Shown here in pieces: positions 2,821 through 19,744 of a stretch of DNA of 56,102 nucleotides. Within the stretch, counting starts at the first letter, position 1; every line of letters begins with the position of its first letter. The notes below the pieces were generated by a model that did no database searches, was not told where the DNA came from, and saw only the letters and a program-made list of their open reading frames with translations. A program made the position numbers and the translations under genes. Source of the stretch: a virus (taxonomy: Duplodnaviria; Caudoviricetes). Where the stretch lies: IMG/VR virus record IMGVR_UViG_3300032272_000014, positions 1 through 56,102 of that record. One strand, written 5' to 3'.

Positions 2821-3032
2821 AAGATAATTTAACAATAAGACAAAAAGAAATAGAAGCTCATAGAGCAATAAATAAACATATTAGGACTACTTTTATGTCA
2901 GAAGTATTAGAAGGGCTTAAACAAGCTGTAAATGATGGTAATACGCCTGAAAGTTGGTTTGAATTAGGAGATAAACGCTTAGAGGAGTATGTTATTAAAA
3001 AATATTGCAATACATGGAGGGAATTGGTTTAA
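2799..3032 (+). CDS. Hypothetical protein
   Basis: ORF track. Confidence 0.55.
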   Translation: MLKKNSMKDNLTIRQKEIEAHRAINKHIRTTFMSEVLEGLKQAVNDGNTPESWFELGDKRLEEYVIKKYCNTWRELV

Positions 3033-3066
3033 ATTAACTATCTTACGAAATCTAATAATTAGTATT

Positions 3067-3606
3067 ATGACTAAAGAAGAAGAAAAAAAAGCGTATAGTA
3101 AAGCATATTACGAGGCTAATAAAAAAAAGTTGAAAGCACACTATGATGCTAATAAAGAAGAAAAAAAAGCGTACGATAAAGCATATTATAAGGCTAATAA
3201 AGAAAAAGTAAAAGAATATAGGGACGCTAATAAAGAAAAGAATAAAGCGTATAGCAAAGCATATTATCAGGTAAATAAAGATAAAAGTAAGGCATATCGT
3301 GAAGCAAATAAGGAAAAGATTAAAGCATATTATAAATATAATAAAGAAGAAAAAAAAGCTTATAGCCAAGTATATAGAAAATCTATAAAACACAAACCAT
3401 TAGTTTATTTATTACCTAAAGAAAATTATGTAGGTACAACAGAATGTATATCTTATAGAATCTCACAACATAAAAACGTAGGTAGAAATACAGAAAAATA
3501 TAAGATACTTAAACGTTTTGAAAATAGGGAAGATGCTCTAGTATTAGAACGTAAAATGCACAATATAGGGTTTAGTGGAAAACACGCAAATAATTCATAT
3601 CAATAA
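3067..3606 (+). CDS. GIY-YIG-like endonuclease with N-terminal KAYYEANKEK repeats
   Basis: LVYLL...YVGTT...RISQH...ALVLE motif; repeated K/A/Y-rich helical units. Confidence 0.6.
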   Translation: MTKEEEKKAYSKAYYEANKKKLKAHYDANKEEKKAYDKAYYKANKEKVKEYRDANKEKNKAYSKAYYQVNKDKSKAYREANKEKIKAYYKYNKEEKKAYSQVYRKSIKHKPLVYLLPKENYVGTTECISYRISQHKNVGRNTEKYKILKRFENREDALVLERKMHNIGFSGKHANNSYQ

Positions 3607-4070: not shown

Positions 4071-4298
4071 TTAAAAAGGACAATCATCATCTAATGGTAT
4101 TAATTCTATATTTTCACGTAATTTAGATTTAACTAAAAAAGTTTTGTTGTCAAGCCAAATACCAATTGATCCACCGTTAGATGTTATTTTTTTAAGTCTA
4201 TTTGTTTTAGAATTATAAACCTTTCTATTCGCTGTTAATTTAATATTTGGATGGCTTATTACCTGCCATTTAGGTGTGAGTTCTATTTTCATAATCAA
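4071..4298 (-). CDS. Array-terminal small protein (paralog of 21920..22144), NUMOD4-like
   Basis: HPNIKLTANRKVYNSKTNRL...CPF vs HPHLKVTRCKKVINTKTNKM...CPF. Confidence 0.7.
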   Translation of the reverse strand: MIMKIELTPKWQVISHPNIKLTANRKVYNSKTNRLKKITSNGGSIGIWLDNKTFLVKSKLRENIELIPLDDDCPF

Positions 4299-4314
4299 AG
4301 AGTAATTTATTAGT

Positions 4315-4327
4315 AATCAGTTGTTTA
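4315..4327 (+). promoter_or_regulatory. IHF-consensus-like site beside the attI-like site of array 1
   Basis: AATCAGTTGTTTA fits WATCARNNNNTTR; mirrored at 21913-21925. Confidence 0.5.
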
Positions 4328-4340
4328 ATCTTTGGCTTTA

Positions 4341-4370
4341 TTAACTATACACTATTGTTATAGGCAATCG
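4341..4370 (+). other. attI-like terminal recombination site of array 1
   Basis: TTAACTATACACTATTGTTA is 19/20 identical to the reverse complement of 21881-21900; GTT core at 4357. Confidence 0.6.
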
Positions 4371-4390: not shown

Positions 4391-4573
4391 TCATAAAAGA
4401 TTTTTAAGGTCATTAACCACGGATTTTAGAATATTCATTTTAACTTGGTATTTTAAAGCTAAATCAAACTTTTTACTTTCAGCAAACCTTACTTGCATTT
4501 GACCTAATTCTAAAATCCTTAGTTCGTAACGTTTAATTATCTTTAGTAATTTATCAATGTTTATTTCTTTCAT
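4391..4573 (-). CDS. Cassette hypothetical protein
   Basis: Bracketed by perfect 14-bp IR GTTATAGGCAATCG (4357) / CGATTGCCTATAAC (4606). Confidence 0.65.
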   Translation of the reverse strand: MKEINIDKLLKIIKRYELRILELGQMQVRFAESKKFDLALKYQVKMNILKSVVNDLKNLL

Positions 4574-4859
4574 AACAAATCTTTTATAATTTTCCTCTGT
4601 ATGCTCGATTGCCTATAACGCTCACGGTAAGGCTGCGCATCGGCAACTGTCAAGGATTACTTGACAGTTCATTTATAAACCGAAGGCAACAGCATATAAC
4701 ATAGTATATGAACTATAGATGCGAAGCCTATGCTCTAACCGTGTATGCTTCGCATCCACAGAGCATATACCGTGAGCGTTGTAGGTAATGGCGCATACGT
4801 GTTACTCACTCATACGCTTTAGGTGCGCCACTACCCACAACACGGTATATACATAATCA

Positions 4860-5279
4860 CTAATATTCGTCTTCGTCAGTAAAAGCATCTAAAATTGGCT
4901 TCCAGTTTGCGATAGTTCCAGTTTCGTCAACGTCCATAATAATGTAGTCGCCATAACCGTTTTCTTTTGGACTCATTATCTTTGGTACGTAATCGTCAAT
5001 CTCTTTTACTAACATTTGGTTATCATCCAAAAGTCTGTACCTACCATCATCGCAAACTTTGTAGTGTATTTCAGCTTTTGTACCCTCAACCCAGTTAAGT
5101 ATTTTTCCAGTTTCAATGTTTATTAATGGACACCAGTTTCCACCGCTTCTACAAGGTATTAATTTACCTGTTTCATCTTCATTACCGTTTACTGTGGCAT
5201 CTTCCCAATACCTAACACCTGCCTCTACTTGCAAATACTTAACTTCAAATTCTCGTTTAATTTTTAATTCTACTTTCAT
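4860..5279 (-). CDS. Hypothetical phage protein (VRYWEDATVNG) inside an attC loop
   Basis: ORF lies between arms 4844-4860 and 5321-5337. Confidence 0.75.
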   Translation of the reverse strand: MKVELKIKREFEVKYLQVEAGVRYWEDATVNGNEDETGKLIPCRSGGNWCPLINIETGKILNWVEGTKAEIHYKVCDDGRYRLLDDNQMLVKEIDDYVPKIMSPKENGYGDYIIMDVDETGTIANWKPILDAFTDEDEY

Positions 5280-5489
5280 TTTACTTTCGTTTTTATAATT
5301 AAATTTTGTCTTAAATTCCCGTGACTATGCATATACCAATACGTTGTAGTTAATTGTGCCACATAGGTTTTTTACAATTCTTGCAACGGTTTCTATCTAT
5401 TTTATTTATACTGCACATCTTTGGTTGTTTACATTGGCACAACTTCACTTCGCTAATTTTGATATTTATAATTGCTTTATTCATAACTA

Positions 5490-5678
5490 TTAAATATCGT
5501 CTTTTATATCATCTCTAGTTATTACTTTCGCTTCGTTAACAACAACACTACCTATACGTAATTGCTCTTCAATACCATTTAATTTGTGTAGTAATTTAGA
5601 TTCTGCTTTTATAGATATTTCACCCATATTTTGAAGATGTAATACCTCATATCTTAATTCTTTAATCTTGTCTTTCAT
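5490..5678 (-). CDS. Junction-spanning small protein (EQLRIGSV|V)
   Basis: Site core 5544-5546 read as in-frame Val. Confidence 0.65.
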   Translation of the reverse strand: MKDKIKELRYEVLHLQNMGEISIKAESKLLHKLNGIEEQLRIGSVVVNEAKVITRDDIKDDI

Positions 5679-5775
5679 TTTTGTTATTTTAAGTTATTAA
5701 TCCACGCAACTACGTATAGCCTTTGCCGTTAGAGTGCATTAAAACGCACAATAACAATGTATAAACAAAATACGC

Positions 5776-5979
5776 TCATTCACCACCTAGCTTTTTTAGA
5801 TACCAATTAATATCTTTGCCAGTAGATTTTTTACGCATTTCATCTAAGTCATTTTTAACCTTTTCTTTATTTGTTAATATGTACTTTCTTAGTGCAATCT
5901 TAGCTTTATCAAATTTATCCATTCGCTTTACTTTGTTTATACCTTTGTTAGCGTTCATTGTCTTTTGCTTTTTAACCAT
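5776..5979 (-). CDS. Hypothetical protein in attC loop (true start probably internal MDKFDK)
   Basis: ORF track; loop 5753-5949. Confidence 0.5.
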   Translation of the reverse strand: MVKKQKTMNANKGINKVKRMDKFDKAKIALRKYILTNKEKVKNDLDEMRKKSTGKDINWYLKKLGGE

Positions 5980-6197
5980 TCTTTTAAGCTCTCGTTTGTT
6001 TCGGTGTTTAATGCTTCGTCAATCTTTCGTTCTAATTCTACCAAATCCAACGTAACGCTAACACGTTGTATAAGTAATTGCTTTTCACAGTAATTATCAG
6101 CCAACTTTACTAATTCATTAAACACATAGTCATTACCCAATAAGCTGTCAGGGTCAGGGTGTTCTGTTCTTACAAATTCTAAAAATCCTTTATACAT
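5955..6197 (-). CDS. Junction-spanning small protein (QLLIQRV|S)
   Basis: Core 6060-6062 in frame. Confidence 0.65.
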   Translation of the reverse strand: MYKGFLEFVRTEHPDPDSLLGNDYVFNELVKLADNYCEKQLLIQRVSVTLDLVELERKIDEALNTETNESLKEWLKSKRQ

Positions 6198-6291
6198 ATC
6201 TATTAAGTTTATTAATTATTCACGCAACTACTCATACAACCATACGTTGTAAAACATTAAAACGATTTTACAACACGGTATATAAAACAAA

Positions 6292-6507
6292 CTAACTTAG
6301 TGGTAATTTTTTAGCTATTAATTCATCCCAATGGTCAGTATGTGTTTTTATATCGTCAAACATTGTAATCGTGTACCAGCTTAATTCTGTTTTTGTAAAT
6401 AAGTTAAAGAAGTATTTTTTTTCAATATTCATTTTAACCTTTATTTCCCATTCACCATCACCAAAAAATCTCATTGGCATTTGCTCATAATTTAGTAAAG
6501 TTCTCAT
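6292..6507 (-). CDS. Hypothetical protein in attC loop
   Basis: ORF inside 6272-6554. Confidence 0.6.
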   Translation of the reverse strand: MRTLLNYEQMPMRFFGDGEWEIKVKMNIEKKYFFNLFTKTELSWYTITMFDDIKTHTDHWDELIAKKLPLS

Positions 6508-6564
6508 ATTAAGTTTTTATTTGTTTAATTGTTCGTTTCATATACCAATACGTTGTAAGTAATA

Positions 6565-6744
6565 CTAATCATCTAGTAAAAATCGAAGCAATTTTATTTG
6601 TGCGTTCAATTCGTTTCCTTCTTTTTGGTATTCTTGTACAACATCGTTATCTCTACAGTTTTCGTATTCATAATCAAACCACGCTACAATTAAAGCGTAT
6701 TCTTTTATTTTTCTTTCTAGTGCTTCTTTTACTTTTTTCTTCAT
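6565..6744 (-). CDS. Cassette hypothetical protein, 59 aa (MKKKVKEALERKIKEY...)
   Basis: Hand translation; fills cassette 6552-6784. Confidence 0.6.
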   Translation of the reverse strand: MKKKVKEALERKIKEYALIVAWFDYEYENCRDNDVVQEYQKEGNELNAQIKLLRFLLDD

Positions 6745-6982
6745 CTTATCAAGTTTTTAGTTATATACCCGTACTACTTACAACATCGTGTATATGGCAT
6801 TAAAACGACCACATACACACAGCGTTGTAATCACATTTAAAAACGTGTTACAACAATAAATATAAGTAATGCTTCACTTGGTTTTTAAACCATCTTTTGC
6901 AGATTATTACAGTTGTTGTCCATCCGAAAGGGTTATCTCTGTTTTTCATCGCACTACTCATATTCTTGTCATTAGCAAACAT

Positions 6983-7294
6983 TTATTTGTTAAGGTCTAT
7001 ACAAGTCGGGCAAGTTTCGTGTCCATCCATAAATTGATGCAATCCGCAAAAGTTGGTAAAACGTTTGCTAACATCGTGTATAGGTAATACTAACTTTCCT
7101 GCTTCATACAGAGTTATGTCTTTTAAATGCAAACAATCTTTAGGGTATTCATTCACGTAATAACTTTGCCCAACCAATTTGCAACTTTCACACATTCCTT
7201 CACCACAATACCATTCAATGTATTCAGGGCAACTTTTACTTCTACAAAATTCAGAGAAGTTGTTTACTTTATTGTTTGCTTTACTTTCGTTCAT
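6983..7294 (-). CDS. Junction-spanning Cys-rich protein (LPIHDV|S)
   Basis: Core 7070-7072 in frame; CxxC motifs on both sides. Confidence 0.65.
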   Translation of the reverse strand: MNESKANNKVNNFSEFCRSKSCPEYIEWYCGEGMCESCKLVGQSYYVNEYPKDCLHLKDITLYEAGKLVLPIHDVSKRFTNFCGLHQFMDGHETCPTCIDLNK

Positions 7295-7359
7295 AATTCA
7301 AAATTTTAGTTTTTTAATCCGTACTACCCATACACCAAACGTTACCAAACGTATACTGC

Positions 7360-7590
7360 TTAGTTACGCATATCATCAAAGTATCTTATTGCATCGTCAA
7401 TTGTTTCACAGTCTTTAAGTTCATTTACTATTTCACCAGCAGTAAACGATTTGGTAACACCGTGTATAGTTAATGCTCTAACCACCTTGTTAATTGTCTT
7501 TATATCTTCTGGAGGTATGTTATTTACCTTTCTGTGATTGTTTCTGTTTAAAATCTTTTTAAGCCTATTTGCTATCTCTGTTGCTGTCAT
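7360..7590 (-). CDS. Junction-spanning small protein (LTIHGV|T)
   Basis: Core 7456-7458 in frame. Confidence 0.65.
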   Translation of the reverse strand: MTATEIANRLKKILNRNNHRKVNNIPPEDIKTINKVVRALTIHGVTKSFTAGEIVNELKDCETIDDAIRYFDDMRN

Positions 7591-7661
7591 TGTTATATTT
7601 ATTAAATTAAGTTCTTAAAAGTCGCACTAACCATACACAAGTACCGTTGTAGTGCATTGTG

Positions 7662-7889
7662 CTAAATATCTTCTATCACTATTTTAGGTATGTGTTTAGT
7701 CACTTTAAACTTAACCCTAACGGTTTTACCATCTAAGTCGCACAACGTACCCTCTGGCACAACAACACTACCTATACGTAATTGCTCTTGTTCGCATTCA
7801 TTCCACACCCGTAACAAGGCTTGTTGCACACTTATATTATCAGGATAAGCTGTCTTACTTTGTATTTCTTTAATTCTGTCTGTTGTCAT
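7662..7889 (-). CDS. Junction-spanning small protein (EQLRIGSV|V)
   Basis: Core 7764-7766 in frame. Confidence 0.65.
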   Translation of the reverse strand: MTTDRIKEIQSKTAYPDNISVQQALLRVWNECEQEQLRIGSVVVPEGTLCDLDGKTVRVKFKVTKHIPKIVIEDI

Positions 7890-7957
7890 TATTTCTATTT
7901 ATTAAGTTTTGTGTTTAATTTTCCGCAACTATGCATAGCCTTGTCCATTAACTACAA

Positions 7958-8089
7958 TTATTTTTTTGCCTTCAACACGTGCTCACTCAGTACGTCTTGT
8001 ATGTAGTTTTTTAAGTCCTTATTTGCAAGCACAGCTAATATCTTTAAAGGCTGTACATCTTCTTCTTTTATGTCTATATTTTTACGCAT
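7958..8089 (-). CDS. Ribbon-helix-helix-like regulator, 43 aa
   Basis: Hand translation MRKNIDIKEEDVQPLKILAVLANKDLKNYIQDVLSEHVLKAKK. Confidence 0.55.
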   Translation of the reverse strand: MRKNIDIKEEDVQPLKILAVLANKDLKNYIQDVLSEHVLKAKK

Positions 8090-8225
8090 CTTTTAAATCT
8101 TTATAATAATCAACAATCTTTCTCGCTATTACAAAATACATCGTAGGCGAAATTGAAACACCACCATTTGCATAATCTCTTTGCTCGTGGTATTTCAATA
8201 TTTCTATAATTTTTTCTTCAGTCAT
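8082..8225 (-). CDS. Hypothetical protein, 47 aa
   Basis: Hand translation MTEEKIIEILKYHEQRDY...; tightly coupled to neighbours. Confidence 0.5.
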   Translation of the reverse strand: MTEEKIIEILKYHEQRDYANGGVSISPTMYFVIARKIVDYYKDLKDA

Positions 8226-8228
8226 AAT

Positions 8229-8393
8229 TTATTGTTTTGCGTAAGTTGGAATCTTACCAGTTAAATACATTTTGTAAGCAAATTTAGTAACACCTTCAAA
8301 ATCGTTTTCTATATTTTGTAAATAAGAATCTTGTGAGTTATTAAAGTTGATTCTTGCAGTTCTAAATTCGTTGTAAGTTAATTGAGTTTTCAT
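8229..8393 (-). CDS. Hypothetical protein, 54 aa
   Basis: Hand translation MKTQLTYNEFRTAR...; follows promoter. Confidence 0.55.
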   Translation of the reverse strand: MKTQLTYNEFRTARINFNNSQDSYLQNIENDFEGVTKFAYKMYLTGKIPTYAKQ

Positions 8394-8422
8394 AATTTTT
8401 ATATTTGTTTGTTATTGTTATA

Positions 8423-8455
8423 CAAATATACATTATATATTCCATATACACAACA
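8423..8455 (-). promoter_or_regulatory. Bacteroidota sigma70-type promoter inside a cassette
   Basis: TTG-N20-TATATTTG matches -33/-7 consensus. Confidence 0.6.
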
Positions 8456-8587
8456 TTTATTTAATAATAATTCAAAAAAGTTTTGCTATCGCAATATGCC
8501 AACCCTCAAAATAACAGTAGTTAACAACGTGTATAACGCATTTGCGAAAAGCAAACGACGATTATACACAAGACCGTTACCACACAT

Positions 8588-8920
8588 TTAATGTGATAAT
8601 TTACCCGTTAAGCAATAACCACTACCATCAGGCTTACAAGTTGATTCAGACCATATCATTATAAGTTCTACTTTACCTTCGTATTTTAGTTGTTTAAGAA
8701 GTACAGTTAATATATCAACTGGTATTTCAGTATCTTTAGAAATAGCCCATTTCAATTTACCGTAACCTTTGCTTAACTTTTTTAAGTCATTAATAATAGC
8801 TTCTTTCATTTCTGCAATAGCAGGAGAAAAACGTGTGCTAACAATGGGTATATCACATTGCTTAGTTTCTTCTTGTTTTCTAAGGTTTCTTAATAACATT
8901 CTAAAATTTCCTATTTTCAT
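8588..8920 (-). CDS. Junction-spanning protein (QCDIPIV|S); C-terminal part winged-helix-like
   Basis: Core 8840-8842 in frame; KWAISKDTEIPVDILTVLLKQLKYEGKV. Confidence 0.6.
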   Translation of the reverse strand: MKIGNFRMLLRNLRKQEETKQCDIPIVSTRFSPAIAEMKEAIINDLKKLSKGYGKLKWAISKDTEIPVDILTVLLKQLKYEGKVELIMIWSESTCKPDGSGYCLTGKLSH

Positions 8921-8966
8921 AATTTATTTATTTAATTCGCAACTAACCATACCCAAACCGTTGTAT

Positions 8967-9215
8967 TCAATTAAAATGCCCTCGTCCGCTGCAAGTCAAA
9001 CAACTCTGCTTATCATCGTAGCTTTCGCCTTCCACAATTCCTGTACCATCACAACAAAGGCATTTTAACTGTTCGCTTTGCAATACAACATTGTATAAAT
9101 CAAATAACTCATTAGTTGCTTGTTCAATGCTATAATTACCATACTTAAATTGTTCTAATACCTCTTTTATATCTTCTTTCATATCGTTACTTGTTTTATA
9201 CTTAGCCGTTAGCAA
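8967..9215 (-). CDS. Junction-spanning protein (LYNV|V) with DnaJ-type CxxCxGxG zinc motifs
   Basis: CLCCDGTG and CLTCSGRG; core 9087-9089 in frame; true start probably MKEDIK. Confidence 0.65.
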   Translation of the reverse strand: MLTAKYKTSNDMKEDIKEVLEQFKYGNYSIEQATNELFDLYNVVLQSEQLKCLCCDGTGIVEGESYDDKQSCLTCSGRGHFN

Positions 9216-9310
9216 ACATTAAAACGATTTGCTAACACGTGGTATAGTGCATAGCTTAGGTTCGTGCCTAATTCAATAGTTTGTGTTTGTTTAACCATAA
9301 TTAAAATATT

Positions 9311-9562
9311 TTAATATTCCTTTAGTTCTGGTTTTCGCTCAATCACGTTTAAATGATAGTTTTTTATTATTTGCCTAACAACCTCTTTGGTATCTTCTTT
9401 AAATAAAGGTTTCATTTTACGTTCCATAACGTATTGAAGCTGTATAGTATAATAGCTGTTAGTCCATATAGTATCAGTATCTAATTTACCAAAACTATCT
9501 TGTAAGTCGCTAAATCTTTGTATTTGTTTATCTACAATTATATTTATGAGTTCTTCCAACAT
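9311..9562 (-). CDS. Hypothetical protein in attC loop
   Basis: Bracketed by perfect 21-bp IR 9297-9317 / 9561-9581. Confidence 0.65.
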   Translation of the reverse strand: MLEELINIIVDKQIQRFSDLQDSFGKLDTDTIWTNSYYTIQLQYVMERKMKPLFKEDTKEVVRQIIKNYHLNVIERKPELKEY

Positions 9563-9641
9563 ATTAAAATATTTTAATTATTACTTCAGTTCTTAATTCA
9601 ATCTTCGTACATTTCAAGGCTACGCACCATACCACTAAACG

Positions 9642-9950
9642 TTAGGCGTAATAGCTTTGGTTACGTCTATCCCTTTCTTCATTTTTTAGGTAATAAGCAA
9701 AGTACCAGTTAGGATTTCTTCCTTCTAAAAAAGCTTCTAATATCTCTAAACGCATTTGCTTTCCTTGCCATCTTATTGCATACTCGTCTGTTCCTACACC
9801 AACACCAAAGCTACTGCCTCTCATATTAACATAGTGGTCTAAATCAGCTTTTACCTTTTTATAAAGTTTAAAGTATTTAACAAACTTGTTTTGCATAACA
9901 ACGTGTATATCACATTGCTTTTCCGTACTTAATTCTTTGTTTTGTTTCAT
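9642..9950 (-). CDS. Junction-spanning protein (QCDIHVV|M)
   Basis: Core 9897-9899 in frame; stop codon lies in the next core. Confidence 0.65.
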   Translation of the reverse strand: MKQNKELSTEKQCDIHVVMQNKFVKYFKLYKKVKADLDHYVNMRGSSFGVGVGTDEYAIRWQGKQMRLEILEAFLEGRNPNWYFAYYLKNEERDRRNQSYYA

Positions 9951-10294
9951 TTTATTAAGTTATTTGATTATTCAATATTTCTGTTTATTTATACGCAACG
10001 TGGCATACACAAAACGTTAGCCTTCATTGTCTTATCACTTAATCCGTGATTCTTGTTTAAGTTTTCTATGTATAGTTCAATCATACATAGTTCTTTTTTA
10101 CTTAATTTTCTGTCTATCATATCCATAATTTTACGATTTCATATTACCATTCGTTAGCTACAATGGCGCAATATGAAAACTAAGCATTACGTGTTAGTGC
10201 GCCACAGTAGCTAACACGTAATATAAAAAATTGCTTAGGTCAGTTCCTTGTAATTAAAGTCGTTGCTTAATCGAAGAAAATAAAAAGCTAGTTT

Positions 10295-10504
10295 CTACAA
10301 TTTTTGCAAATGTTCGCTCTTATAAGCATTTATCATTTTACCATTTTCAAGTTCAATCTGTATTTTAAATCCGTAAAAGGCATTTTTTTCAGTGCAATAA
10401 TCTTCTACATTTTTAACAGTTCCTTCCATTCCTATAAAGTTTCCACCTCTAAAAAACACTTTAGTTTCTTTTGGGAATATCTCAGAGGGCAGTCTATTTT
10501 TCAT
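10295..10504 (-). CDS. Small KOW/SH3-like protein in attC loop
   Basis: KVFFRGGNFIGMEGTVKNV pattern. Confidence 0.5.
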   Translation of the reverse strand: MKNRLPSEIFPKETKVFFRGGNFIGMEGTVKNVEDYCTEKNAFYGFKIQIELENGKMINAYKSEHLQKL

Positions 10505-10581
10505 CGCTTTTTATTTTTGGTTTATCTATTAATTTCGTACTTAATTCAGCAACTTTTCATATTACTATTCGTTATATACAA

Positions 10582-10806
10582 TTAAACCGAGGCTAGATTT
10601 TTTATTATATATATAGCTTCTGCTTCTTCAATGTATTGCTTATCAGTTTTGTTTTCTTGATAGTTTAGGTGTATTGGCTTAAACTTGTCTTTTTGGTGTA
10701 GTATTACGCTTTTAAACTCACTTATTACAGGGTTTCTGTCTATAATAATAAAAAATCTTGGGTCACTTAACCAAAGTGTTTTCGCTGTGCTTTTGTATTG
10801 TATCAT
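10582..10806 (-). CDS. Cassette hypothetical protein
   Basis: Between IR GTTATATACAATTAAACC / GGTTTAACAGTATATAAC. Confidence 0.6.
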   Translation of the reverse strand: MIQYKSTAKTLWLSDPRFFIIIDRNPVISEFKSVILHQKDKFKPIHLNYQENKTDKQYIEEAEAIYIIKNLASV

Positions 10807-10972
10807 TTGCTAATGTATTTTAAAGGTTTAACAGTATATAACACTGTATAAAGTCTATTGCTTTTTAAAGCTTTATCAATGTTTAATTATTATTTGTTGT
10901 TTATTATCCACAATTCAAAGGTTTTTGTTGTTTATAAGCAACATACCTTATACAATTCCGTTAGGGCAAATA

Positions 10973-11272
10973 CTACTTATGCATTTTACCGCCATTTAAT
11001 TCACAAAGAAATTTCATAATAGTTTCCATATCAGTATTTCGGTTTGCGTGGCTTAAATAATCTCTTGGTTTTTCATAGTGGTAACTATTGCTTTCAATAT
11101 GCTGTTTGCAAGACTTTTCAGTTAAAAAGGCGTTCTGTAGTTTAAATACTTTTTGCCTGTTTACTTTTCGGTAATTATTTTCTAATATCTCGTCTTTTTC
11201 ATAGTCCGTTAACTCGTTGTATTTTTTTTCAACTTCATCTTCTTCATAATCATAATCTTTTTTAAGTTTCAC
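10973..11272 (-). CDS. Hypothetical protein, possibly N-terminally truncated
   Basis: GTG start directly after a GTT-type core (AAC 11275-11277 on +). Confidence 0.5.
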   Translation of the reverse strand: MKLKKDYDYEEDEVEKKYNELTDYEKDEILENNYRKVNRQKVFKLQNAFLTEKSCKQHIESNSYHYEKPRDYLSHANRNTDMETIMKFLCELNGGKMHK

Positions 11273-11296
11273 ATAACGCCATTGTATTACTTTAGG

Positions 11297-11752
11297 CTAT
11301 CGACGAGACTTGAGCATATTTACATACGGTTTTAATCGTGTTTCTCTAAAATCTAATACATCACTGTCGCTCATATCGTTTAAAGCGTTTATAATAGATG
11401 TTTTAACACTAATAGTAGTATTTGGAATTGGTGTGACTTTTATATACACTTTACTTACTTTTAGATTGTATTGATCTATAATTTCATTATAAACTTCTTT
11501 ATACTTATCGTTAATAACATCAAAAGTTCTTTTGTTAAAATATATTAAATGATGAGGACAACCCAAAGAATCACCTATTTCTTGAAGGGTATATCCATAA
11601 TCCATCTCGTAAGATAATTTAGAATAAACTTTTCTAGCATAAGCATTATGCCTTTTTCTATTCTTAGCTCTTATATCCGACTCTAATTTACTGTCAATAA
11701 TATCTATTAGTTGGTCTAGTTTCATTTCTGTTTGTTTTAATTGTTCAATCAA
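11297..11752 (-). CDS. DnaA domain IV-like HTH DNA-binding protein
   Basis: RKRHNAYARKVY...YTLQEIGDSLGCPHHLI. Confidence 0.55.
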   Translation of the reverse strand: MIEQLKQTEMKLDQLIDIIDSKLESDIRAKNRKRHNAYARKVYSKLSYEMDYGYTLQEIGDSLGCPHHLIYFNKRTFDVINDKYKEVYNEIIDQYNLKVSKVYIKVTPIPNTTISVKTSIINALNDMSDSDVLDFRETRLKPYVNMLKSRR

Positions 11753-11802
11753 ATGTATATAACTTTATTAACATTAAGAAGAACTTTAACACTTTTTAAC
11801 AT

Positions 11803-12048
11803 TTAATAAATCACACCCTTACCTTTTTGTGTAGCGAAGGCGTTAAAACCATTTTTCTTTAATTGATCTATCCTTAATTTCTGTAAAGGCTTTAAAGTAT
11901 CATTAGGTTCTTTAACTTCAATCCATGTTGTTATACCATTTTTCATAGCCATAACATCTGGATAACCCGACTTATTTAATCGTATGGTTTTTAACACATC
12001 GTAACCCATTGACTCGTATTTACTTATTATTTCCTCTTGATATGTCAT
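11803..12048 (-). CDS. VRR-NUC / PD-(D/E)xK nuclease
   Basis: GYPDV...WIEVK...LKPLQ; next to helicase. Confidence 0.8.
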   Translation of the reverse strand: MTYQEEIISKYESMGYDVLKTIRLNKSGYPDVMAMKNGITTWIEVKEPNDTLKPLQKLRIDQLKKNGFNAFATQKGKGVIY

Positions 12049-13265
12049 TAATATTGCTTTTTAAATACTGATGTTGTATATGATTTTTTATTCATTACTT
12101 GTTTATAAATCTTTTCCTCGATACCACCTTCAGAAAATATCCAATAGATGTCATTTGACTTTCGCTGCATAGTTGTAAGTCTATCTCTACTTTGCCAATA
12201 GTTCTTAGCACTAAAATCTATGTTATAGTAAACCAGGTAATCAGCTTCCTTTAAAGAAATACCTTCACTTCCACTTACAATCTGTAGAGCAATATGCTTA
12301 TCCGTAGCATTGAACTCATCTAAATCATTGGTTAACCTATCACCGAATACTTGCTTTAGTGCTTCATACTCAGCCTTAAACTTATAAAAAACACCTATTT
12401 TAGAGTTACCGAAATGGGAACTTATGAATTTAGATTTACTTAAATCAAAGGCACTACTACTTTTATCTTCAAATAATACAGTACCACTAAAAATCTGGTG
12501 TAACTTCTGCATTTCCTTAACTGCTGTATCAGCCATAATCTCTCGACCATCCTTAGCTATAACGAATTTATCCTTAGATAGTCTCTTCGCTAAAGCGTAT
12601 GTAGAATCATTCATCTTTACTTTTAATACATTCTCTATTACCTTAGTCTCAAAACCTGCTTCAGCTTGTGTAAAAGTAAGCATATAGGGTTTTATAATAG
12701 GTTTAATCAGGTGCATATAAGCATTACTATAATCTTTTACCACTGCATACCCTAAACGCCTATCTTTAACATCTACAAAATCTTTAGCCCACTTATAAAA
12801 TGTAGTGTATTTAAACGGATTTCTTTTACTACACCAAAATTGGTGAAATATTTGAGAGTATGACTCTGGATGAGGTGTACCACTTAAAAAAATCATAGGT
12901 AAATGACTGTAATTGTCTTTAATAAACCTAGTCATTTTATTAGCTTTAGGAAAAGCACCGTTTCTGTGGTGTTCATCGCTAATAAGAAAATCATAATCAT
13001 CTATAAACTTATGGGCTGATTCATTATTAATTACCGTAAGATTGAACGTAAAACCAAAGTTTTTATAGTCATCTTCTATAGACGATATTGCTTTCTTTTT
13101 AGTAAGAAATAGCACTTTCTTAGCACCGTAAAGCTGTGCAGCGTTTAAAGATGTTAAAGTTTTACCTGTTCTCACTTCCATAGACAAGTAAACAATATGT
13201 AATTCCTTTAAGATGTCATTTGCTCTATTGGAAAGTTCCTCCTGGTATTTTCTAAGTTCGTACAT
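12048..13265 (-). CDS. SF2 (SNF2-like) helicase
   Basis: RTGKT, SDEHH, LSGTP, EGISL, QSRDR motifs. Confidence 0.85.
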   Translation of the reverse strand: MYELRKYQEELSNRANDILKELHIVYLSMEVRTGKTLTSLNAAQLYGAKKVLFLTKKKAISSIEDDYKNFGFTFNLTVINNESAHKFIDDYDFLISDEHHRNGAFPKANKMTRFIKDNYSHLPMIFLSGTPHPESYSQIFHQFWCSKRNPFKYTTFYKWAKDFVDVKDRRLGYAVVKDYSNAYMHLIKPIIKPYMLTFTQAEAGFETKVIENVLKVKMNDSTYALAKRLSKDKFVIAKDGREIMADTAVKEMQKLHQIFSGTVLFEDKSSSAFDLSKSKFISSHFGNSKIGVFYKFKAEYEALKQVFGDRLTNDLDEFNATDKHIALQIVSGSEGISLKEADYLVYYNIDFSAKNYWQSRDRLTTMQRKSNDIYWIFSEGGIEEKIYKQVMNKKSYTTSVFKKQY

Positions 13266-13459
13266 AGTAAATCAGTTATTTCTTCGTGTTTTAACATTCT
13301 AGGTTTATAATTTTCAATATAGTAGGCAAAGAACGTGTTATCATCTAAATATTTGAAGATATGATAAAGTATATCATTATCTATGTATGTAGATGACAAC
13401 TTAAAATCCCTACCTATACTACCTTGCTGTATATCGAAAGTGTTTGTTTTTGGCTTCAT
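13208..13459 (-). CDS. Hypothetical protein
   Basis: ORF track. Confidence 0.4.
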   Translation of the reverse strand: MKPKTNTFDIQQGSIGRDFKLSSTYIDNDILYHIFKYLDDNTFFAYYIENYKPRMLKHEEITDLLCTNLENTRRNFPIEQMTS

Positions 13460-13462
13460 TAT

Positions 13463-15802
13463 TTAAAATTCTATTTCAGGTTCTTTGCTTTTAAATCCAC
13501 TAACGCTAAATTTTCTTATACCTCCATACGTTGTATCTTCTCTTTTCCATTGCTTAAACTCAAGATACATACCTATCCATCTACCAAACCAACTTACATT
13601 CATGTTTCTAGGAATCTCCCTTGATCCATCATTATATTTAAGCATTATTTCTTTAGTGGTGTAATATTGACCCTCTTTCCAGAAAAATTCATTTTCGCAA
13701 AAATCATATAAATCCTCACAAGTATTAGCAATTAGTTTTTTAGTCTTACCTGTTTTTAATTCAGACTTTAATAAACCATTTGTTAGATAAAGCTGTATAT
13801 TTATAATCATGTAATTATAAAAAGCATTCCAATCATCATCAGACCATTTTAATCCGAAAAACAATTTACCAAATTCATCAATAGGTTTATAGTTTTTAGA
13901 GTAATGTCTAAAAAGTTCAATCTCTAGCTTTCTATCTTCGTGACTATCACCAACACCTGATAATATATAGTTAGATGTAAAAAGCATTTTAGGACTTCTT
14001 TCAAATGGAATAACAATAGGTTGTTGGAACTTCTTTTTAAGTGTTAAGTTACCAGTAACTATACTAAAAAGGCTTTCATACTTAAATTTTCGCTCCATAT
14101 CATCAAAGCAAATAACATTATCATCAAGGCTTATCGTATCGTATGGGAAATTCCCTTTATTATCAAACTCTTTACCATTTAAAGTAACTAACTTTCTTAA
14201 CTCACCAACAGCATCAGCAACAAGAGTTTTACCTGTTCTACCACTTGGATTATCGTTTAAGGTTTCGTCATATAAAATAACAGACAACCCTTCATCTTGC
14301 TTTTTGTGAGTTGTTAACAAGTAACCTACTGCACTTTCTAAAATCTCTTTACGCTTTAAGTCTTGATTAGATACATTTAATATAAACTGTTCAAAATCAC
14401 TTTTACTATCAGTTATATTAAAATCTCTTTTTATAATATTATCTTCCCATACAAAACCACCGATATTGATGTAGTCTATAAACTCAATATTATCTTTAGT
14501 AACCTTAACAACTTTATTTAAAAAGAATAGATAGCTTTCATTAGGTGTGTCTCTAACCATTGCTAATTGTTTTGTAGATAATTGGTTTAAGTAGTTTTCA
14601 GTAAACTTAGTTGTAGATTTAGCGAAAAAATTATAGACAGCTATATCTATCTCCTGGACGTAATTAAGTATAAAGTCTTTTATATTTGTTTCATTGACTT
14701 CATTTATAATATTATTATAAACCTTAACAAAAGTAAATTCCTTTTCATTTAACTGCACCTTATAGTAACCTCTATTTTCTAAGAACAACTTAAACTTATA
14801 GTCATTAAGTGATATTGAACCGTTCTTATTAACATCCCAAAATATCAAATAGTCATCTTCAAAATCAAAATCAATAATATCTTCTATCTGATCTTCATCT
14901 AAACCCTCTTTCTTTAGTTCCCTCTTAGCTTTAGAAACACCTTTTTTTAAAAGTCTTTCAGCTTCATAGATTTTATTATCATCTATTAAAGTAAGGGTGT
15001 TAAACTCATGTGTATTTCTATAAGCTGAATCAACTATTGCTTCTGGCTCACCTTTATCCAAACCATTTGAGTAAAAGCTAATAAATAAAGATTTACATTC
15101 AGTAGAACTCATACCTGCTTTATTTAGACCACAAGCCAACCTAAAGAGATTATTATTTCTTTCACCAACATTTAAAGTAAATTTCTTATTAAACCACTTC
15201 ATTATAACATCTACCTTTTTATCAGTATCTTGTATCTGAAAATGTACAGGGTAGTTATTTTTAAGAGTAACTTCTGTAAAGTCTTTTTTAAGTTCCCATA
15301 ATTTAGAGTTATGGTTTATGAATAAGTTAGGGTCGTAACTCTCGTAGCAAACCCTAGACACATCTTTAGTCTTAGTGTCTAACTTTGTATCAAAAGTTTC
15401 ACATATTGCCTCGTAGTACTTTTTATGGTCTTTTATTACTGGTGGTATTTTAACTAGAGCTTTAACACCATTACCACTAGGACTTATAAATGCAGAGTAA
15501 ATAAATTCATTATCTTGTAGACTATCCCTTAAAGCAACAGGATCATCAACATCATCAAAATCTAAACAAGCAAAACCAGAGTGCGTTACACAATTTTTAG
15601 CAGAGCGATAAGAAAACTTACCGCTAAAACAAATTGATTTTAACTTTTGTTTTAAAGGGTTTCTATCGTCCTTACTTTTAAAGCTTCTTATTTTATTTAT
15701 AAACTCCTTATTTGTTCCGTTCTTGATGTCGTTTAAAACGTCGTCAATTTCTTTGTAGAAAGGATTCTCTACATCTTTTATATTAGCAAATACTGTAATC
15801 AT
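13463..15802 (-). CDS. Primase-helicase (VirE-N/BT4734-like + PriCT-1 + P-loop)
   Basis: CLDFD, FISPSGNGVKALV, DVSRVCYESYDP, GERNNNLF, SGRTGKT. Confidence 0.85.
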   Translation of the reverse strand: MITVFANIKDVENPFYKEIDDVLNDIKNGTNKEFINKIRSFKSKDDRNPLKQKLKSICFSGKFSYRSAKNCVTHSGFACLDFDDVDDPVALRDSLQDNEFIYSAFISPSGNGVKALVKIPPVIKDHKKYYEAICETFDTKLDTKTKDVSRVCYESYDPNLFINHNSKLWELKKDFTEVTLKNNYPVHFQIQDTDKKVDVIMKWFNKKFTLNVGERNNNLFRLACGLNKAGMSSTECKSLFISFYSNGLDKGEPEAIVDSAYRNTHEFNTLTLIDDNKIYEAERLLKKGVSKAKRELKKEGLDEDQIEDIIDFDFEDDYLIFWDVNKNGSISLNDYKFKLFLENRGYYKVQLNEKEFTFVKVYNNIINEVNETNIKDFILNYVQEIDIAVYNFFAKSTTKFTENYLNQLSTKQLAMVRDTPNESYLFFLNKVVKVTKDNIEFIDYINIGGFVWEDNIIKRDFNITDSKSDFEQFILNVSNQDLKRKEILESAVGYLLTTHKKQDEGLSVILYDETLNDNPSGRTGKTLVADAVGELRKLVTLNGKEFDNKGNFPYDTISLDDNVICFDDMERKFKYESLFSIVTGNLTLKKKFQQPIVIPFERSPKMLFTSNYILSGVGDSHEDRKLEIELFRHYSKNYKPIDEFGKLFFGLKWSDDDWNAFYNYMIINIQLYLTNGLLKSELKTGKTKKLIANTCEDLYDFCENEFFWKEGQYYTTKEIMLKYNDGSREIPRNMNVSWFGRWIGMYLEFKQWKREDTTYGGIRKFSVSGFKSKEPEIEF

Positions 15803-15806
15803 AAAA

Positions 15807-16001
15807 TTACTTATTTTTTAGTTTTTGCTGAACATGTAATAATGTTCCAATGTAATCGTGAAGTTGTTGAATTGTAAGGTATGATTCAGACCTTGAGTTT
15901 TCAAAGTCTAGTGTTATAATAACACATTCATTACCATCTTCTTGTATTGTTATTTCTGACTTGTATTCTTCAGTTCCAACACTATGAGAGTGAGACACCA
16001 T
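15807..16001 (-). CDS. Hypothetical protein
   Basis: ORF track. Confidence 0.5.
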   Translation of the reverse strand: MVSHSHSVGTEEYKSEITIQEDGNECVIITLDFENSRSESYLTIQQLHDYIGTLLHVQQKLKNK

Positions 16002-16059
16002 ATTTTATATTATATTAAGTTAAATTAAAAACCAAAGATACAAATAAAAACCGACTTTA

Positions 16060-16265
16060 CAAACAAAAACAGGAAGAACAGCAAAAAACAGCATTTCTAA
16101 AATATGCTGTATAGTCTAACTACTTGATAATCAGAACGAAACTTTACGAAAAACAGCATAACAGCATTTTTTCTACTTTTTCAATATTTTGAGTAAAATT
16201 TATATTTTTTAAAATATATATATAGTTAGAGTGTTTTTTGCCGTTTTGCTGTTTTACTGTTTTTA
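16060..16265. other. Putative replication origin
   Basis: Non-coding; AACAGCA repeats, inverted TGCTGT/TACTGT copies, AT-rich core, IHF consensus 16117-16129; upstream of primase. Confidence 0.45.
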
Positions 16266-16270
16266 CAAAT

Positions 16271-16306
16271 AAAAAAACCCTTACAAATCAATGTAAGGGC
16301 TTCTTT
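16271..16306 (-). terminator. Probable terminator
   Basis: CCCTTACA...TGTAAGGG hairpin with A/T tails. Confidence 0.55.
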
Positions 16307-16434
16307 CAGGTTAATTGCAACTATTTACTAAACCTCTTTTTCAGGTATATTATAAGTAACGTTATAAATAATATAGGGGGAACTGAAGCTATGAAATATA
16401 AAATATTCTTAGCTATGATTTTTACCTCTCTCAT

Positions 16435-17127
16435 CTAAAATGGAAGATCGTCTGGATCGTTATCACCATCAACTAACACAGGCTCTTTTACTTCGACATT
16501 ATCTACGTCCACTTCTGGTTTAGCGGTTACACTCTCGAAGTGTGAAACAATCTCTAAGTACTTTTCGTTAGCTAAAGCCATTTCAGCTTTGGTAAACGCT
16601 TTACCTATAGTAAAATCAGGTGTAGAATACTTAGTAGCACCCTTTTTATGGTCTGTAACGGTCTTGATTTCACACCAAGCACCTTCGACTGCATTTTCAT
16701 TCTCATTTAAGAAATCAGAATAAGCAGCTACAACAGCACCTTTAAGTTGTAGGTTAATAATATCACCATTCGTATCTACAACATAGACTGATCGATGGTA
16801 TTTACCACCTGCGTCTAGTATGTTTAATCTAATTTCACCGTAAATCCCTTCAGCAATATCACCACCTTTAAATGATTTAACCTTTAATGGTTCTTTAGAG
16901 ATAAATTTAACCTCGTTTGAAAAGATACGAGAACTACTAGCATCATGCCATCCTTTAATAGTATGGAAATGCTCTAGGAACATAAATTTAAAAGGCACTT
17001 CCACCTTTACATTCTCTGTTTTTGATTTATCCCAGTACTCAAAGCACTTGTCGTTTGATTTCCACTCTAAGAATTTAGTGGCAGGATTTTTTCTTGTTTC
17101 TGTTTGATTTAATGTTCTTCTTGACAT
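16435..17127 (-). CDS. Probable ssDNA-binding/recombination protein
   Basis: Acidic tail ending DDLPF; replication module. Confidence 0.55.
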   Translation of the reverse strand: MSRRTLNQTETRKNPATKFLEWKSNDKCFEYWDKSKTENVKVEVPFKFMFLEHFHTIKGWHDASSSRIFSNEVKFISKEPLKVKSFKGGDIAEGIYGEIRLNILDAGGKYHRSVYVVDTNGDIINLQLKGAVVAAYSDFLNENENAVEGAWCEIKTVTDHKKGATKYSTPDFTIGKAFTKAEMALANEKYLEIVSHFESVTAKPEVDVDNVEVKEPVLVDGDNDPDDLPF

Positions 17128-17198
17128 AATATAATTGTTTTAAAATACGATTAAATTGCCGTAACCGCTTCGGCTCAATTGTTCTGCAATGTAGTGTT

Positions 17199-17435
17199 TT
17201 ATTCTTTGTTATCCAACTTTTTCTTATTAATATAATCGTTTTTATATCTTCGTGCTGCTTTTAGTTTTATGCACAACTCCCTAAAAGTTCTATCATTCTC
17301 ATATAGTTCTGTTGTGTCTGGTAGTTTAGTGAAGTCAGTCATTGACTGACCAAGCATACCATCTAATTCGTTAAATAACGCTTGTTCTATAAAGTCGTTA
17401 TCCTCTATTTCTACTTTAATTATTATTATCCTCAT
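17199..17435 (-). CDS. Hypothetical protein
   Basis: ORF track. Confidence 0.55.
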   Translation of the reverse strand: MRIIIIKVEIEDNDFIEQALFNELDGMLGQSMTDFTKLPDTTELYENDRTFRELCIKLKAARRYKNDYINKKKLDNKE

Positions 17436-17437
17436 AT

Positions 17438-17965
17438 CTATTTTAAATTAATTTCTAACCCTATAAACCCACTGAATCGGATTTCGTTTTTGCTATACAT
17501 ATATTTTAAATCCTTACGCTCTGTAAGTTGACCTACAACAGAAGCTTTGATGGTGTTATTTATAACATAAGCAATCTCGCCACTACCACCAAACGAAAAG
17601 AATGACTTACCATACCTATCTATAAACCCCCAACCACCAAATAGTGAGGCTTCAAAGTTGTTTACTACCAACTCATTAAAAGTGTACCCAACGTTAGCTG
17701 AGTATCGTTTATAGCTTCCTTCTATTTCAGCATATTCAAATTCAGGAAATACCACTAAATATCCAAACGCTTGTTGGTTTGATTGCATCTTTAACCTTGC
17801 AAGTATATTAATAGTTCCTGCGTCATTACCAACATCATCACCTATCAACCCAAGTCTTACGTCCTGGTGTATGGATAGTGATACGTTAGATTGTGCTAAA
17901 GCAATACTACTTAGCGTTATAATCAATATAACTAGCACAATTTCCTTTACGTTTATCTTTCTCAT
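17438..17965 (-). CDS. Signal-peptide protein, probable small outer-membrane beta-barrel
   Basis: Signal ending ALA-Q; alternating aromatic/Gly strands; C-terminus GFIGLEINLK. Confidence 0.6.
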   Translation of the reverse strand: MRKINVKEIVLVILIITLSSIALAQSNVSLSIHQDVRLGLIGDDVGNDAGTINILARLKMQSNQQAFGYLVVFPEFEYAEIEGSYKRYSANVGYTFNELVVNNFEASLFGGWGFIDRYGKSFFSFGGSGEIAYVINNTIKASVVGQLTERKDLKYMYSKNEIRFSGFIGLEINLK

Positions 17966-18067
17966 GTCGTTATAGGTTCGTTAATTACTAAAGCTATGAT
18001 AACACATACAACTATTCCTATTCCTATTGCTGCTGAGAATGCTAACTTATAGTTTATTTCTTTTGAT

Positions 18068-18322
18068 TTATCTTTCATAGTTTTTAATTAATTGTTCTAA
18101 TACATCTACTTCTAGTAAGTCATTAACTTCTAAAAACTCATTAATTGTTTTAGGTTGTCTTTTTATCTTATGTGTTATAATATCAGGTGCTTCAAAATTT
18201 TCGTATGAATACAGGTGGTAAATATATGTACGCCTACCTTTGCCTAATAATGAACACCAGTCTGTGTCGCACTCACCACCTACGTAATGCAATTCTAATA
18301 CTTCTTTTACTTTTTTACTCAT
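18068..18322 (-). CDS. Hypothetical protein
   Basis: ORF track. Confidence 0.55.
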   Translation of the reverse strand: MSKKVKEVLELHYVGGECDTDWCSLLGKGRRTYIYHLYSYENFEAPDIITHKIKRQPKTINEFLEVNDLLEVDVLEQLIKNYER

Positions 18323-18481
18323 AATTTCTAGTTTATTTAATTATTTTCTTAATTTCGTTTACGTAATATCTTAAAACAGTTTGTTTAACCGCTGTATCAT
18401 CATTGTAATAATGTGAATCTACTTCTACCCTACCGTTTATAATTGTTGTCTTTACTAAAGGTTCGTTTAAATTTCTCATAA

Positions 18482-18799
18482 TTATGATTCTATAGCTATT
18501 TCTAACCATGTTAATATTTTATCTTCTTGTTTAGCCGTTAGCTTAACTTCATCACTTCTAACATTATAAATAGAATTGATTTTAAACTCACAATCTGTTA
18601 AGTGACCTTCATAATCTCTTTTTAAATCAAATTCAATAAAGAAGTATAGATCGTTGTCATCATCATCATAAACACATATTTCTTTTTCCACCTTAATAGA
18701 TGATCCACTCGCACCATCATAATCCCAATCCCAAAGAAATGCACTAATGGTTGGTAAGTTCTCGCACATTTGCGTAATTTGTAAGTCTGTAATTTTCAT
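18482..18799 (-). CDS. Acidic hypothetical protein, first gene of leftward operon
   Basis: ORF track. Confidence 0.6.
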   Translation of the reverse strand: MKITDLQITQMCENLPTISAFLWDWDYDGASGSSIKVEKEICVYDDDDNDLYFFIEFDLKRDYEGHLTDCEFKINSIYNVRSDEVKLTAKQEDKILTWLEIAIES

Positions 18800-18905: not shown

Positions 18906-19076
18906 ATGGATTTGACAAAGCAATTAAAAGAGAGAGGTGTTACTAAAGCAGAAATGTCTCGAAAAATGGGTGTTACATGGAATACGGTAAATAACTGGTG
19001 TAATACAGAATGGAAAAGATTGAGTTACACAACACGAGAAAGGATATGTAAACTGTTAGAGGTTGAGGTGTGCTAA
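18906..19076 (+). CDS. Cro/XRE-like HTH regulator, 56 aa
   Basis: Hand translation LKERGVTKAEMSRKMGVTWNTVNNW...ICKLLEV; not in ORF track. Confidence 0.75.
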   Translation: MDLTKQLKERGVTKAEMSRKMGVTWNTVNNWCNTEWKRLSYTTRERICKLLEVEVC

Positions 19077-19127
19077 CGTTAATCGTATATGATTTTTAAA
19101 AATTAATAAATAAAAACAGAATAAATT

Positions 19128-19349
19128 ATGTGGACAGAAGTAAGTAAACAGACACCAAAATCAGACCAAAACTATGAAGTGTATGGAATTGTAAATGTAG
19201 GTACTAAACACGAAACTAAACAGCAGTTTCAAGCCTACTTTAATACAGAAACCCAAAAATGGGAAAACCACAATTGGGATGATATAAACCCTTGCGATCA
19301 CGAAGTAAAGTTTTGGTATGATTTTGACCAAGTGAAAGAACCGATGTAA
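19128..19349 (+). CDS. Hypothetical protein (DUF551-like W...P...W pattern) in attC loop
   Basis: MWTEVSKQTP...VKFW. Confidence 0.6.
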   Translation: MWTEVSKQTPKSDQNYEVYGIVNVGTKHETKQQFQAYFNTETQKWENHNWDDINPCDHEVKFWYDFDQVKEPM

Positions 19350-19425
19350 TTTTTATTAATTATATACGGTGTTAGCATTAGCGAAGCGTAGTTTTAATTA
19401 ATGCTAACGTATTGGATAAGAATAG

Positions 19426-19683: not shown

Positions 19684-19744
19684 AGCATAACAGACGAGTG
19701 TATGGTTAATAGCGTGGAATTAAGAACTAATTAAATAAAAAGAA

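Follow-up and report, generated by a model that had tools for sequence, protein, structure and literature searches.

Paired small genes behind a near-identical 20-base site in a recombinase-free phage genome: apparently diverged copies of one phage gene and not an integron platform

Where a series of small, co-oriented open reading frames (ORFs) in a phage is bordered by a conserved site and an adjoining gene, do these mark the platform of an integron? The question is raised by two places in the 56,102-base stretch of viral DNA analysed here (the window), at each of which a near-identical 20-base site precedes a small gene. In an earlier note on this DNA, the site was taken for attI-like, and together with an IHF box and the small gene, standing where intI should be, it was regarded as the platform in which two gene arrays end. 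An integron platform with a tiny gene instead of intI would, if true, be a new kind of recombination system.

The window is the whole genome of a tailed phage. IMG/VR lists it as a 100% complete record of the direct-terminal-repeat class, an exact repeat of 127 bp is found at its two ends, and it encodes terminase, portal and tail proteins, a helicase, a primase/helicase and an endolysin-like protein. The GC content is about 26–36%, and the closest named relatives are phages of Cellulophaga, Polaribacter and Flavobacterium, by which the window is recognized as a marine Flavobacteriia phage. In six-frame searches of the complete genome, neither tyrosine recombinases (PF00589) nor serine recombinases (PF00239) gave a single match, and the controls for these searches were positive in 14/14 and 13/14 genomes, respectively. 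Sigma-70 region 2 (PF04542) and SSB (PF00436) were absent from the window as well, in six-frame searches whose positive controls worked. As the complete genome holds no integrase, the two modules are not an integron platform.

The genes of this phage lie in strand blocks, which run, according to gene order, from about 54.5 kb, past the genome ends, to 4062 (plus), from 18799 down to 4071 (minus), from 18906 to 22144 (plus) and from 53229 down to 22167 (minus). The plus-strand block starting at 18906 is headed by a Cro/C1-type HTH gene (18906–19076, plus), before which a promoter-like site of the canonical form TTG-N18-TAnnTTTG ends at 18889. A free-standing homing-type endonuclease gene of the NUMOD4-HNH_3-AP2 type (40860–41393, minus) is located within the structural gene block. 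Two repeat regions were observed elsewhere. One lies between the late operon and the plus-strand block: a 16-nt unit is repeated in tandem about 12 times (53587–53784) and is followed by a 19-nt unit in 3.5 perfect copies (53819–53884), an iteron-like arrangement, so that an origin or packaging region is conceivable there. Within the ORF at 2989–3606, six overlapping copies of a 124-nt repeat (3084–3396, plus), in which spacings of 33 and 45 nt alternate, code for a repeat rich in lysine and tyrosine; the protein, of 205 aa, has no Pfam match.

Both small genes close a block. Paralog 1 (P0003; 4071–4292, minus), the last gene of the minus-strand block, encodes a basic protein of 73 aa ending in CPF, and paralog 2 (P0018; 21926–22144, plus), the last gene of the plus-strand block, encodes one of 72 aa with the same ending; the family profile matches them at E 3.6e-29 and 4.6e-24, respectively. 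Their reading frames are open from TTG (4071–4298, minus; 21920–22144, plus), and the database records begin both proteins two codons inside, at ATG 4292 and ATG 21926. That the two genes are related, as had been claimed, is confirmed by BLASTP, in which 21 of 65 residues are identical (32% identity, E 5e-8), and by the shared CPF end. Local alignment of the DNA of the two modules is confined to the 20-mer and part of the leader. On the evidence of sequence, the two modules are anciently diverged copies of one phage gene, present in the window at copy number 2 and each provided with its own upstream region.

The orientation of these genes is unlike that of an integrase gene. Each is co-directional with its own block (4391–18799, minus, before paralog 1; 19128–21873, plus, before paralog 2), stands as the final and promoter-distal gene of that block, and adjoins a convergent junction. 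It is true in a geometrical sense that the gene reads away from the array, as the earlier note put it, but it does so along the block strand, leaving at the 3′ end, and not divergently like intI. In integrons, according to PMC9892861, intI and attI occupy the promoter-proximal end of the array and intI is divergent from the cassettes; here the small genes are on the block strand, last and promoter-distal.

The 20-mer itself withstood scrutiny. Positions 4341–4360 (plus) and the reverse complement of 21881–21900 are identical at 19 of 20 positions, with one difference, and the match is real and beyond chance: when up to three mismatches are allowed, these two are the sole matches in the window, where 0.05 would be expected, and none of 100 shuffles reached two. 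Read on the strand of the gene that it precedes, copy 1 (4341–4360, minus) is found 48 nt upstream of ATG 4292 and copy 2 (21881–21900, plus) 25 nt upstream of ATG 21926. By eye, this sequence can be seen to be an imperfect dyad, bounded by TAAC...GTTA, in which 7 of 9 arm positions are complementary. As single strands, the sites do not form the corresponding fold, since site 1 (z −2.4) gives just a 4-bp side hairpin and site 2 has a z of −0.5. A region of about 90 nt upstream of the gene can be aligned across nine family genes, and the 20-mer recurs before the orthologs in two further loci, L007 (two mismatches) and L009 (three mismatches). Before homologs in general, the exact 20-mer is at background in 14 of 16 loci (7–9 mismatches; control mean 8.6); L005 and L011 show seven mismatches, a level reached by 14% of control windows, and the remaining 12 show eight or nine.

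Other structures were observed around site 1. A perfect 14-nt inverted repeat, with arms at 4357–4370 (plus) and 4606–4619 (minus), brackets the 60-aa gene at 4391–4573, and its first arm overlaps the distal end of the 20-mer; this repeat has two matches in the window, a number reached in 1 of 100 shuffles. In locus L001 (131–520), and likewise in L004, a 114-aa gene that precedes the family member is bracketed, as seen by eye, by the arms of a split palindrome, which resembles the inverted repeat around 4391–4573, and in both cases the gene apparently sits inside a stem-loop element. Next to the bracketed gene of the window, a GC-richer intergenic stretch of 286 nt (4574–4859, minus) can form three long hairpins (−106 kcal/mol, z −6.3, with 0 of 200 shuffles as stable). 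Neither an Rfam family nor a tRNA was found in that stretch, and the outer arms of its structure look like an R1-type palindrome with nested insertions (R1 being the motif described below).

The IHF boxes did not fare as well as the 20-mer. One IHF-consensus match (4315–4327, plus) is within the conserved 5′ leader of paralog 1 and the other (21913–21925, minus) abuts the start codon of paralog 2; both 13-mers fit WATCARNNNNTTR, the first of them fitting the looser consensus only, because of a G at position 6. They are present as had been reported, separated from the 20-mer by 13 and 12 nt and oriented identically relative to the gene, but their frequency is at chance level and they are not conserved in orthologs. 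The loose consensus has 9 matches in the whole window against 12.5 ± 3.3 expected, and at least 9 were obtained in 87 of 100 shuffles. Among eight orthologous upstream regions, a match was seen in none in the corresponding orientation and in one in the opposite orientation. We infer that both are chance hits in an AT-rich leader.

The surroundings of the 20-mer sites become clearer when the small genes of the two blocks are considered together. An intergenic motif of about 50 nt, R1, precedes most small genes at 5.3–11 kb (minus) and 19.0–21.6 kb (plus); the consensus reads TTTAATG-N6-yTAACG-N7-8-TATG-N2-TAGTTGCG, and an A-rich leader comes after it. There are 14 strand-consistent copies in 5309–10973 (minus), each upstream of a small gene, and 7 in 19063–21610 (plus). 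The model was built from 16 copies, with both 20-mer sites left out, and the best 21 hits in the window (E ≤ 0.017) comprise the 16 training copies and 5 new ones, and every one lies in the two blocks, on the strand of their genes. With a narrower regular expression, now superseded by R1, 12 matches were obtained against 2.6 in shuffles. In 19 other loci R1 gave 17 hits at E ≤ 0.1, again all on the gene strand.

R1 scores the two 20-mer sites at 8.1 bits (E 0.25) and 6.0 bits (E 1.2), on the right strand and in register, the matches covering 4325–4368 (minus) and 21870–21899 (plus). Alignment of the sites with the R1 family goes by its invariant columns, AAC and TA, and its TAGTTGCG part is lacking in the sites. 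As these scores are weak, the description of the sites as a variant of the general motif rests on register and not on score, and at best they would be such a variant. The left half of R1 (yTAAC, spacer, GTAT) is one half of imperfect palindromes of 60–85 nt with unequal spacers; a hairpin with z ≤ −1.5 is formed by 6 of 16 R1 copies in the window, with z down to −2.9, and two stretches, TAGTTGCG and AATTAA, are conserved beyond the palindrome.

The identity of a factor reading R1 was considered as well. R1 does not match the promoter consensus of Bacteroidota, TTG/TAnnTTTG, and no canonical TTG-N17-21-TAnnTTTG promoter was found before either paralog. Sigma-54 and ECF-type readings of R1 were dropped when the spacing, judged by eye, proved unfit, and no phage sigma factor able to read it was found, PF04542 being absent from the genome. 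The octamer CTTTGA(T/A)T stands directly before the ATG in 5 of 9 family genes (window 4293–4305; L002, L004, L008 and L011); but for one extra base it looks like the −7 box of Bacteroidota, and a leaderless transcript is therefore conceivable. In the first plus-strand block (611–2241, plus), another upstream repeat was seen in place of R1 (families D2 and D4), whose unit measures about 35 nt and has its end at the start codon.

Short motifs of this sort are known from other phages. Those of T4-like phages termed PeSLs are reportedly the subject of work published by Arbiol and colleagues in 2010. The layout found here, a strand-specific intergenic motif upstream of small variable genes (21 hits in the window, 17 elsewhere), is of the PeSL type: PeSLs, described by Comeau et al. 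2014 (PMC4122927) as composite promoter-terminator stem-loops of T4-like phages, are likewise short, conserved, intergenic and in part stem-loops, and they flank small variable genes in plastic regions. A 19/20 site before paralogs that are 32% identical would fit the exchange of modules bounded by such motifs. The hosts and the consensus differ, however, and a promoter or terminator role of R1 is putative.

R1 also occurs in a cultured relative. Polaribacter phage P12002L has six R1 hits, five of which end 7–41 nt before an annotated CDS, and the sixth (1931–1979) is about 100 nt before the next CDS. In this phage (locus L022), the methyltransferase genes gp54 and gp53 are flanked by R1 hits and gp52, a member of the small-protein family, directly follows, and the spacer L022:3092–3160 folds as a single imperfect hairpin of about 60 nt (z −3.2). 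According to Qi et al. 2023 (PMC9892861), a CALIN is a cluster of attC sites without integrase, such clusters are predicted in virulent phages including P12002L, the cluster of P12002L holds two methyltransferase genes, which its predicted sites flank, and one of two P12002L attC sites tested recombined with attI1 by IntI1 in E. coli, the other having failed. We infer that R1 hits in P12002L, with those at L022:2240–2269 and 3088–3132 as candidates, probably coincide with the published attC-like sites attC1 and attC2. Since attC-like palindromes in P12002L have already been published (PMC9892861), the array likeness of the blocks is not new.

The two proteins of the window belong to a sizeable family. 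A profile search of 1.84 billion representatives with a cut-off of E ≤ 1e-3 returned 73 family representatives, nearly all of them stand-alone and 53–114 aa long. Two apparent members, P0048 (1925 aa) and P0085 (571 aa), were discarded as spurious, being repeat proteins with unrelated Pfam domains. The pI exceeds 9 in all 57 aligned members, 39 of which have PF at the C-terminus, and CPF is found in 22 of those 39. Neighbouring Atlas clusters have 50–186 members and are 81–100% viral. Searches of the proteins by sequence against Pfam, NCBIfam and PDB yielded no significant family, PHROGs returned phrog_35066 only, to which no function is assigned there, and GenBank phages, searched by tblastn with paralog 2, contained no match. 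As judged from its members, the family is almost purely viral, stand-alone at about 75 aa, strongly basic and usually ended by (C)PF. The C-terminal tip of bacterial SSB recruits partner proteins, and an acidic, SSB-like tail was sought in the family, whose tails proved not to be acidic in the mean, the six residues before PF averaging 1.2 acidic against 1.05 basic ones; the small protein as a partner of a phage SSB was likewise dropped, given that PF00436 is absent from the genome.

The positions of homologs bear on the claim that both arrays end in the same module. Nineteen other loci, some of them near-duplicates, were examined, and the comparisons of next genes and ORF sizes were made on these. 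Related loci were gathered with an alignment and with single proteins as queries, among which P0021 yielded none. When up to three ORFs on either side of the family gene are compared, the median size is 77 aa upstream (n = 30) and 153 aa downstream (n = 45; Mann-Whitney p 0.0025, from crude ORF calls that include the near-duplicate loci). The upstream ORFs being smaller, the family gene tends to come last in a series of small ORFs. This much of the claim stands, but its meaning as a platform fails, and in the other genomes examined the gene is single-copy and mostly mid-string, so that the claim is weakened by the test which the earlier note itself had proposed, homologs with no link to arrays. 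Five other virus records that bear the family, four of them complete, have one copy each, and a tyrosine recombinase was found in 0/5. Directionality factors of the Xis type belong to elements with an integrase gene, mostly next to it. With 0 integrases in the window and 0/5 in these records, the proposed role of the small protein as a directionality factor is therefore without support.

The next gene is co-directional in 15 of the 19 loci and convergent in four (L006, where the ORF is doubtful, L007, L009, which is partial, and L019). In a number of loci it encodes a nuclease. Paralog 2 has as its convergent neighbour a 416-aa Mre11/SbcD-like metallophosphoesterase ('DNA repair exonuclease'; 22167–23417, minus), and an Mre11-like next gene is also found in L018 and L019. 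The product is a metallophosphoesterase in L007, PD-(D/E)XK in L002, RecE-like in L014 and RusA-like in L008, and in P12002L it is annotated as NinG/Rap. In L004 and L015, the three genes after the family member include a RecT/exonuclease pair or an exonuclease. No nuclease was seen near the family gene at paralog 1, L005, L006, L010, L011, L012, L020 or L021. These raw counts suggest that the family gene is often beside nuclease and recombination genes.

The description of the protein as a NUMOD4-like DNA binder has some weak leads in its favour. Pfam NUMOD4 (PF07463) is matched at E ≤ 1 by 4 of 57 members (best E 2.1e-5), one of which is P0025 (E 0.07, residues 21–42), and NUMOD4 is the only named look-alike in the Atlas, with scores of 0.85 and 0.84. 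These weak leads stand against results for the proteins of the window, which have no NUMOD4 hit at E ≤ 10; the six-frame search gives 41217–41390 only, and hhalign against NUMOD4 assigns 0.2–0.4% probability (0.4% against a shallow 2-sequence alignment). A PDB sequence search brought up the I-HmuI N-terminus at E 1.4 and nothing significant. With NUMOD4 of HNH homing endonucleases such as I-HmuI, the family has in common a W, a hydrophobic-polar strand and an N.KTG-like turn; it differs in that it has no nuclease domain, the window proteins are sub-threshold, and the conserved (C)PF is foreign to NUMOD4. From the charge and the weak NUMOD4 leads, the protein is most likely a small DNA-binding factor.

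Several explanations compete for these findings. That the 20-mer is attI-like, the 13-mer an IHF site and the protein an accessory, the whole being the platform of two cassette arrays served by a host integrase, is exceedingly improbable: the proposal fails at every defining feature that can be tested. The recombinase is absent from the complete genome and from the five other family-bearing records, the gene is co-directional and promoter-distal whereas intI and attI are promoter-proximal and divergent, the site occupies the array end opposite to that of attI, the IHF box is neither enriched over chance nor conserved, and the other genomes examined have one copy, mostly mid-string. The R box, GTTRRRY, is fitted neither by GTTATAG at site 1 nor by GTTAGCC at site 2, and among 18 aligned sites of the window only one fits it. 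Against all this, there are in its favour the 19/20 match at the end of both blocks, the tendency of the family gene to close small-ORF runs and the IntI1-active attC-like sites published for a related phage beside a family member (PMC9892861). Quite unlikely, too, is a reading in which the blocks are CALIN-type arrays of attC-like sites and the dyads duplex core sites at their boundary, used occasionally by a host recombinase, with the small gene merely the first conserved gene beyond the variable zone. The window resembles P12002L here, both being virulent Flavobacteriia phages with imperfect palindromes between co-directional genes and no integrase; the left half of R1 is one arm of an imperfect palindrome, the hairpins reach z −3.2 in L022:3092–3160 and −2.9 in the window, R1 hits flank the P12002L methyltransferase genes that PMC9892861 places in the CALIN, and ORF sizes step up at the family gene. 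Yet a CALIN is by definition without attI or platform, just 6 of 16 window copies have hairpins at z ≤ −1.5, the rarity of GTTRRRY counts here as well, and conservation of TAGTTGCG and AATTAA goes beyond the palindrome. An attC-type fold is an imperfect palindrome of about 57–141 nt with unpaired spacers; the two dyads remain unfolded as single strands, and Rfam had no match anywhere in the window. The published activity, moreover, is heterologous (IntI1 in E. coli), and one of the two P12002L sites failed (PMC9892861).

It is also unlikely that the proteins are stand-alone remnants of the N-terminal, DNA-binding part of NUMOD4-HNH homing endonucleases, either decaying or domesticated as regulators, with their duplication reflecting past mobility of the homing type. 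Such an origin would account for the four NUMOD4 hits among 57 members, the sole named Atlas neighbour and the I-HmuI N-terminus at E 1.4, and a genuine NUMOD4-HNH_3-AP2 gene is indeed present in the phage at 40860–41393. However, the window proteins have no NUMOD4 hit, whether at E ≤ 10 or in six frames, hhalign remains at 0.2–0.4%, there are no longer, nuclease-fused relatives among the 73 representatives, and the strongly conserved C-terminal PF together with a purifying pattern argues against decay.

The explanation that we prefer, and consider somewhat more probable than improbable, is that the window is a complete, recombinase-free phage of the marine Flavobacteriia type, in which the modules are two diverged copies of one gene from a viral family of basic, usually (C)PF-ended proteins of about 73 aa, situated where small early ORFs meet larger genes, often those of nucleases or recombination. 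The 20-mer, an imperfect duplex dyad in R1 register, would act as a promoter or operator element of the small gene itself, and it would have been kept at 19/20 while the coding DNA diverged past DNA alignment. The small basic protein would be a DNA binder that may bind the dyad, and so be autoregulatory, and that may work with the neighbouring nuclease; the IHF hits would be chance, and the modules no platform. Its gene borders on the nuclease and recombination genes of the phage. One may go further and imagine an integrase-free exchange of cassettes in virulent Flavobacteriia phages. In that scheme, attC-like TAAC/GTTA palindromes would lie between small genes (one P12002L palindrome being an IntI1 substrate), the basic, (C)PF-ended 73-aa protein, with which the series of small genes closes, would recognize TAAC...GTTA boxes, as the duplex dyad ahead of its own gene or as folded palindromes, and a neighbouring Mre11-like, PD-(D/E)XK, RusA or Rap nuclease would be recruited via the Pro-Phe tip in the manner of SSB. 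This scheme is very improbable as it stands.

The evidence thus leads to something more ordinary than a new platform, namely a duplicated small gene and its control site amid small genes that are split by a lineage-wide motif. The small basic phage proteins of about 75 aa, which share a conserved Pro-Phe at the C-terminus, make up a widespread family without a name; its place beside recombination nucleases is reproducible, and this makes it a reasonable candidate for a new accessory factor in DNA metabolism. Because the R1 family is apparently the kind of element that has been published as attC-like in P12002L, the question of regulation versus recombination can be addressed in a cultured phage.
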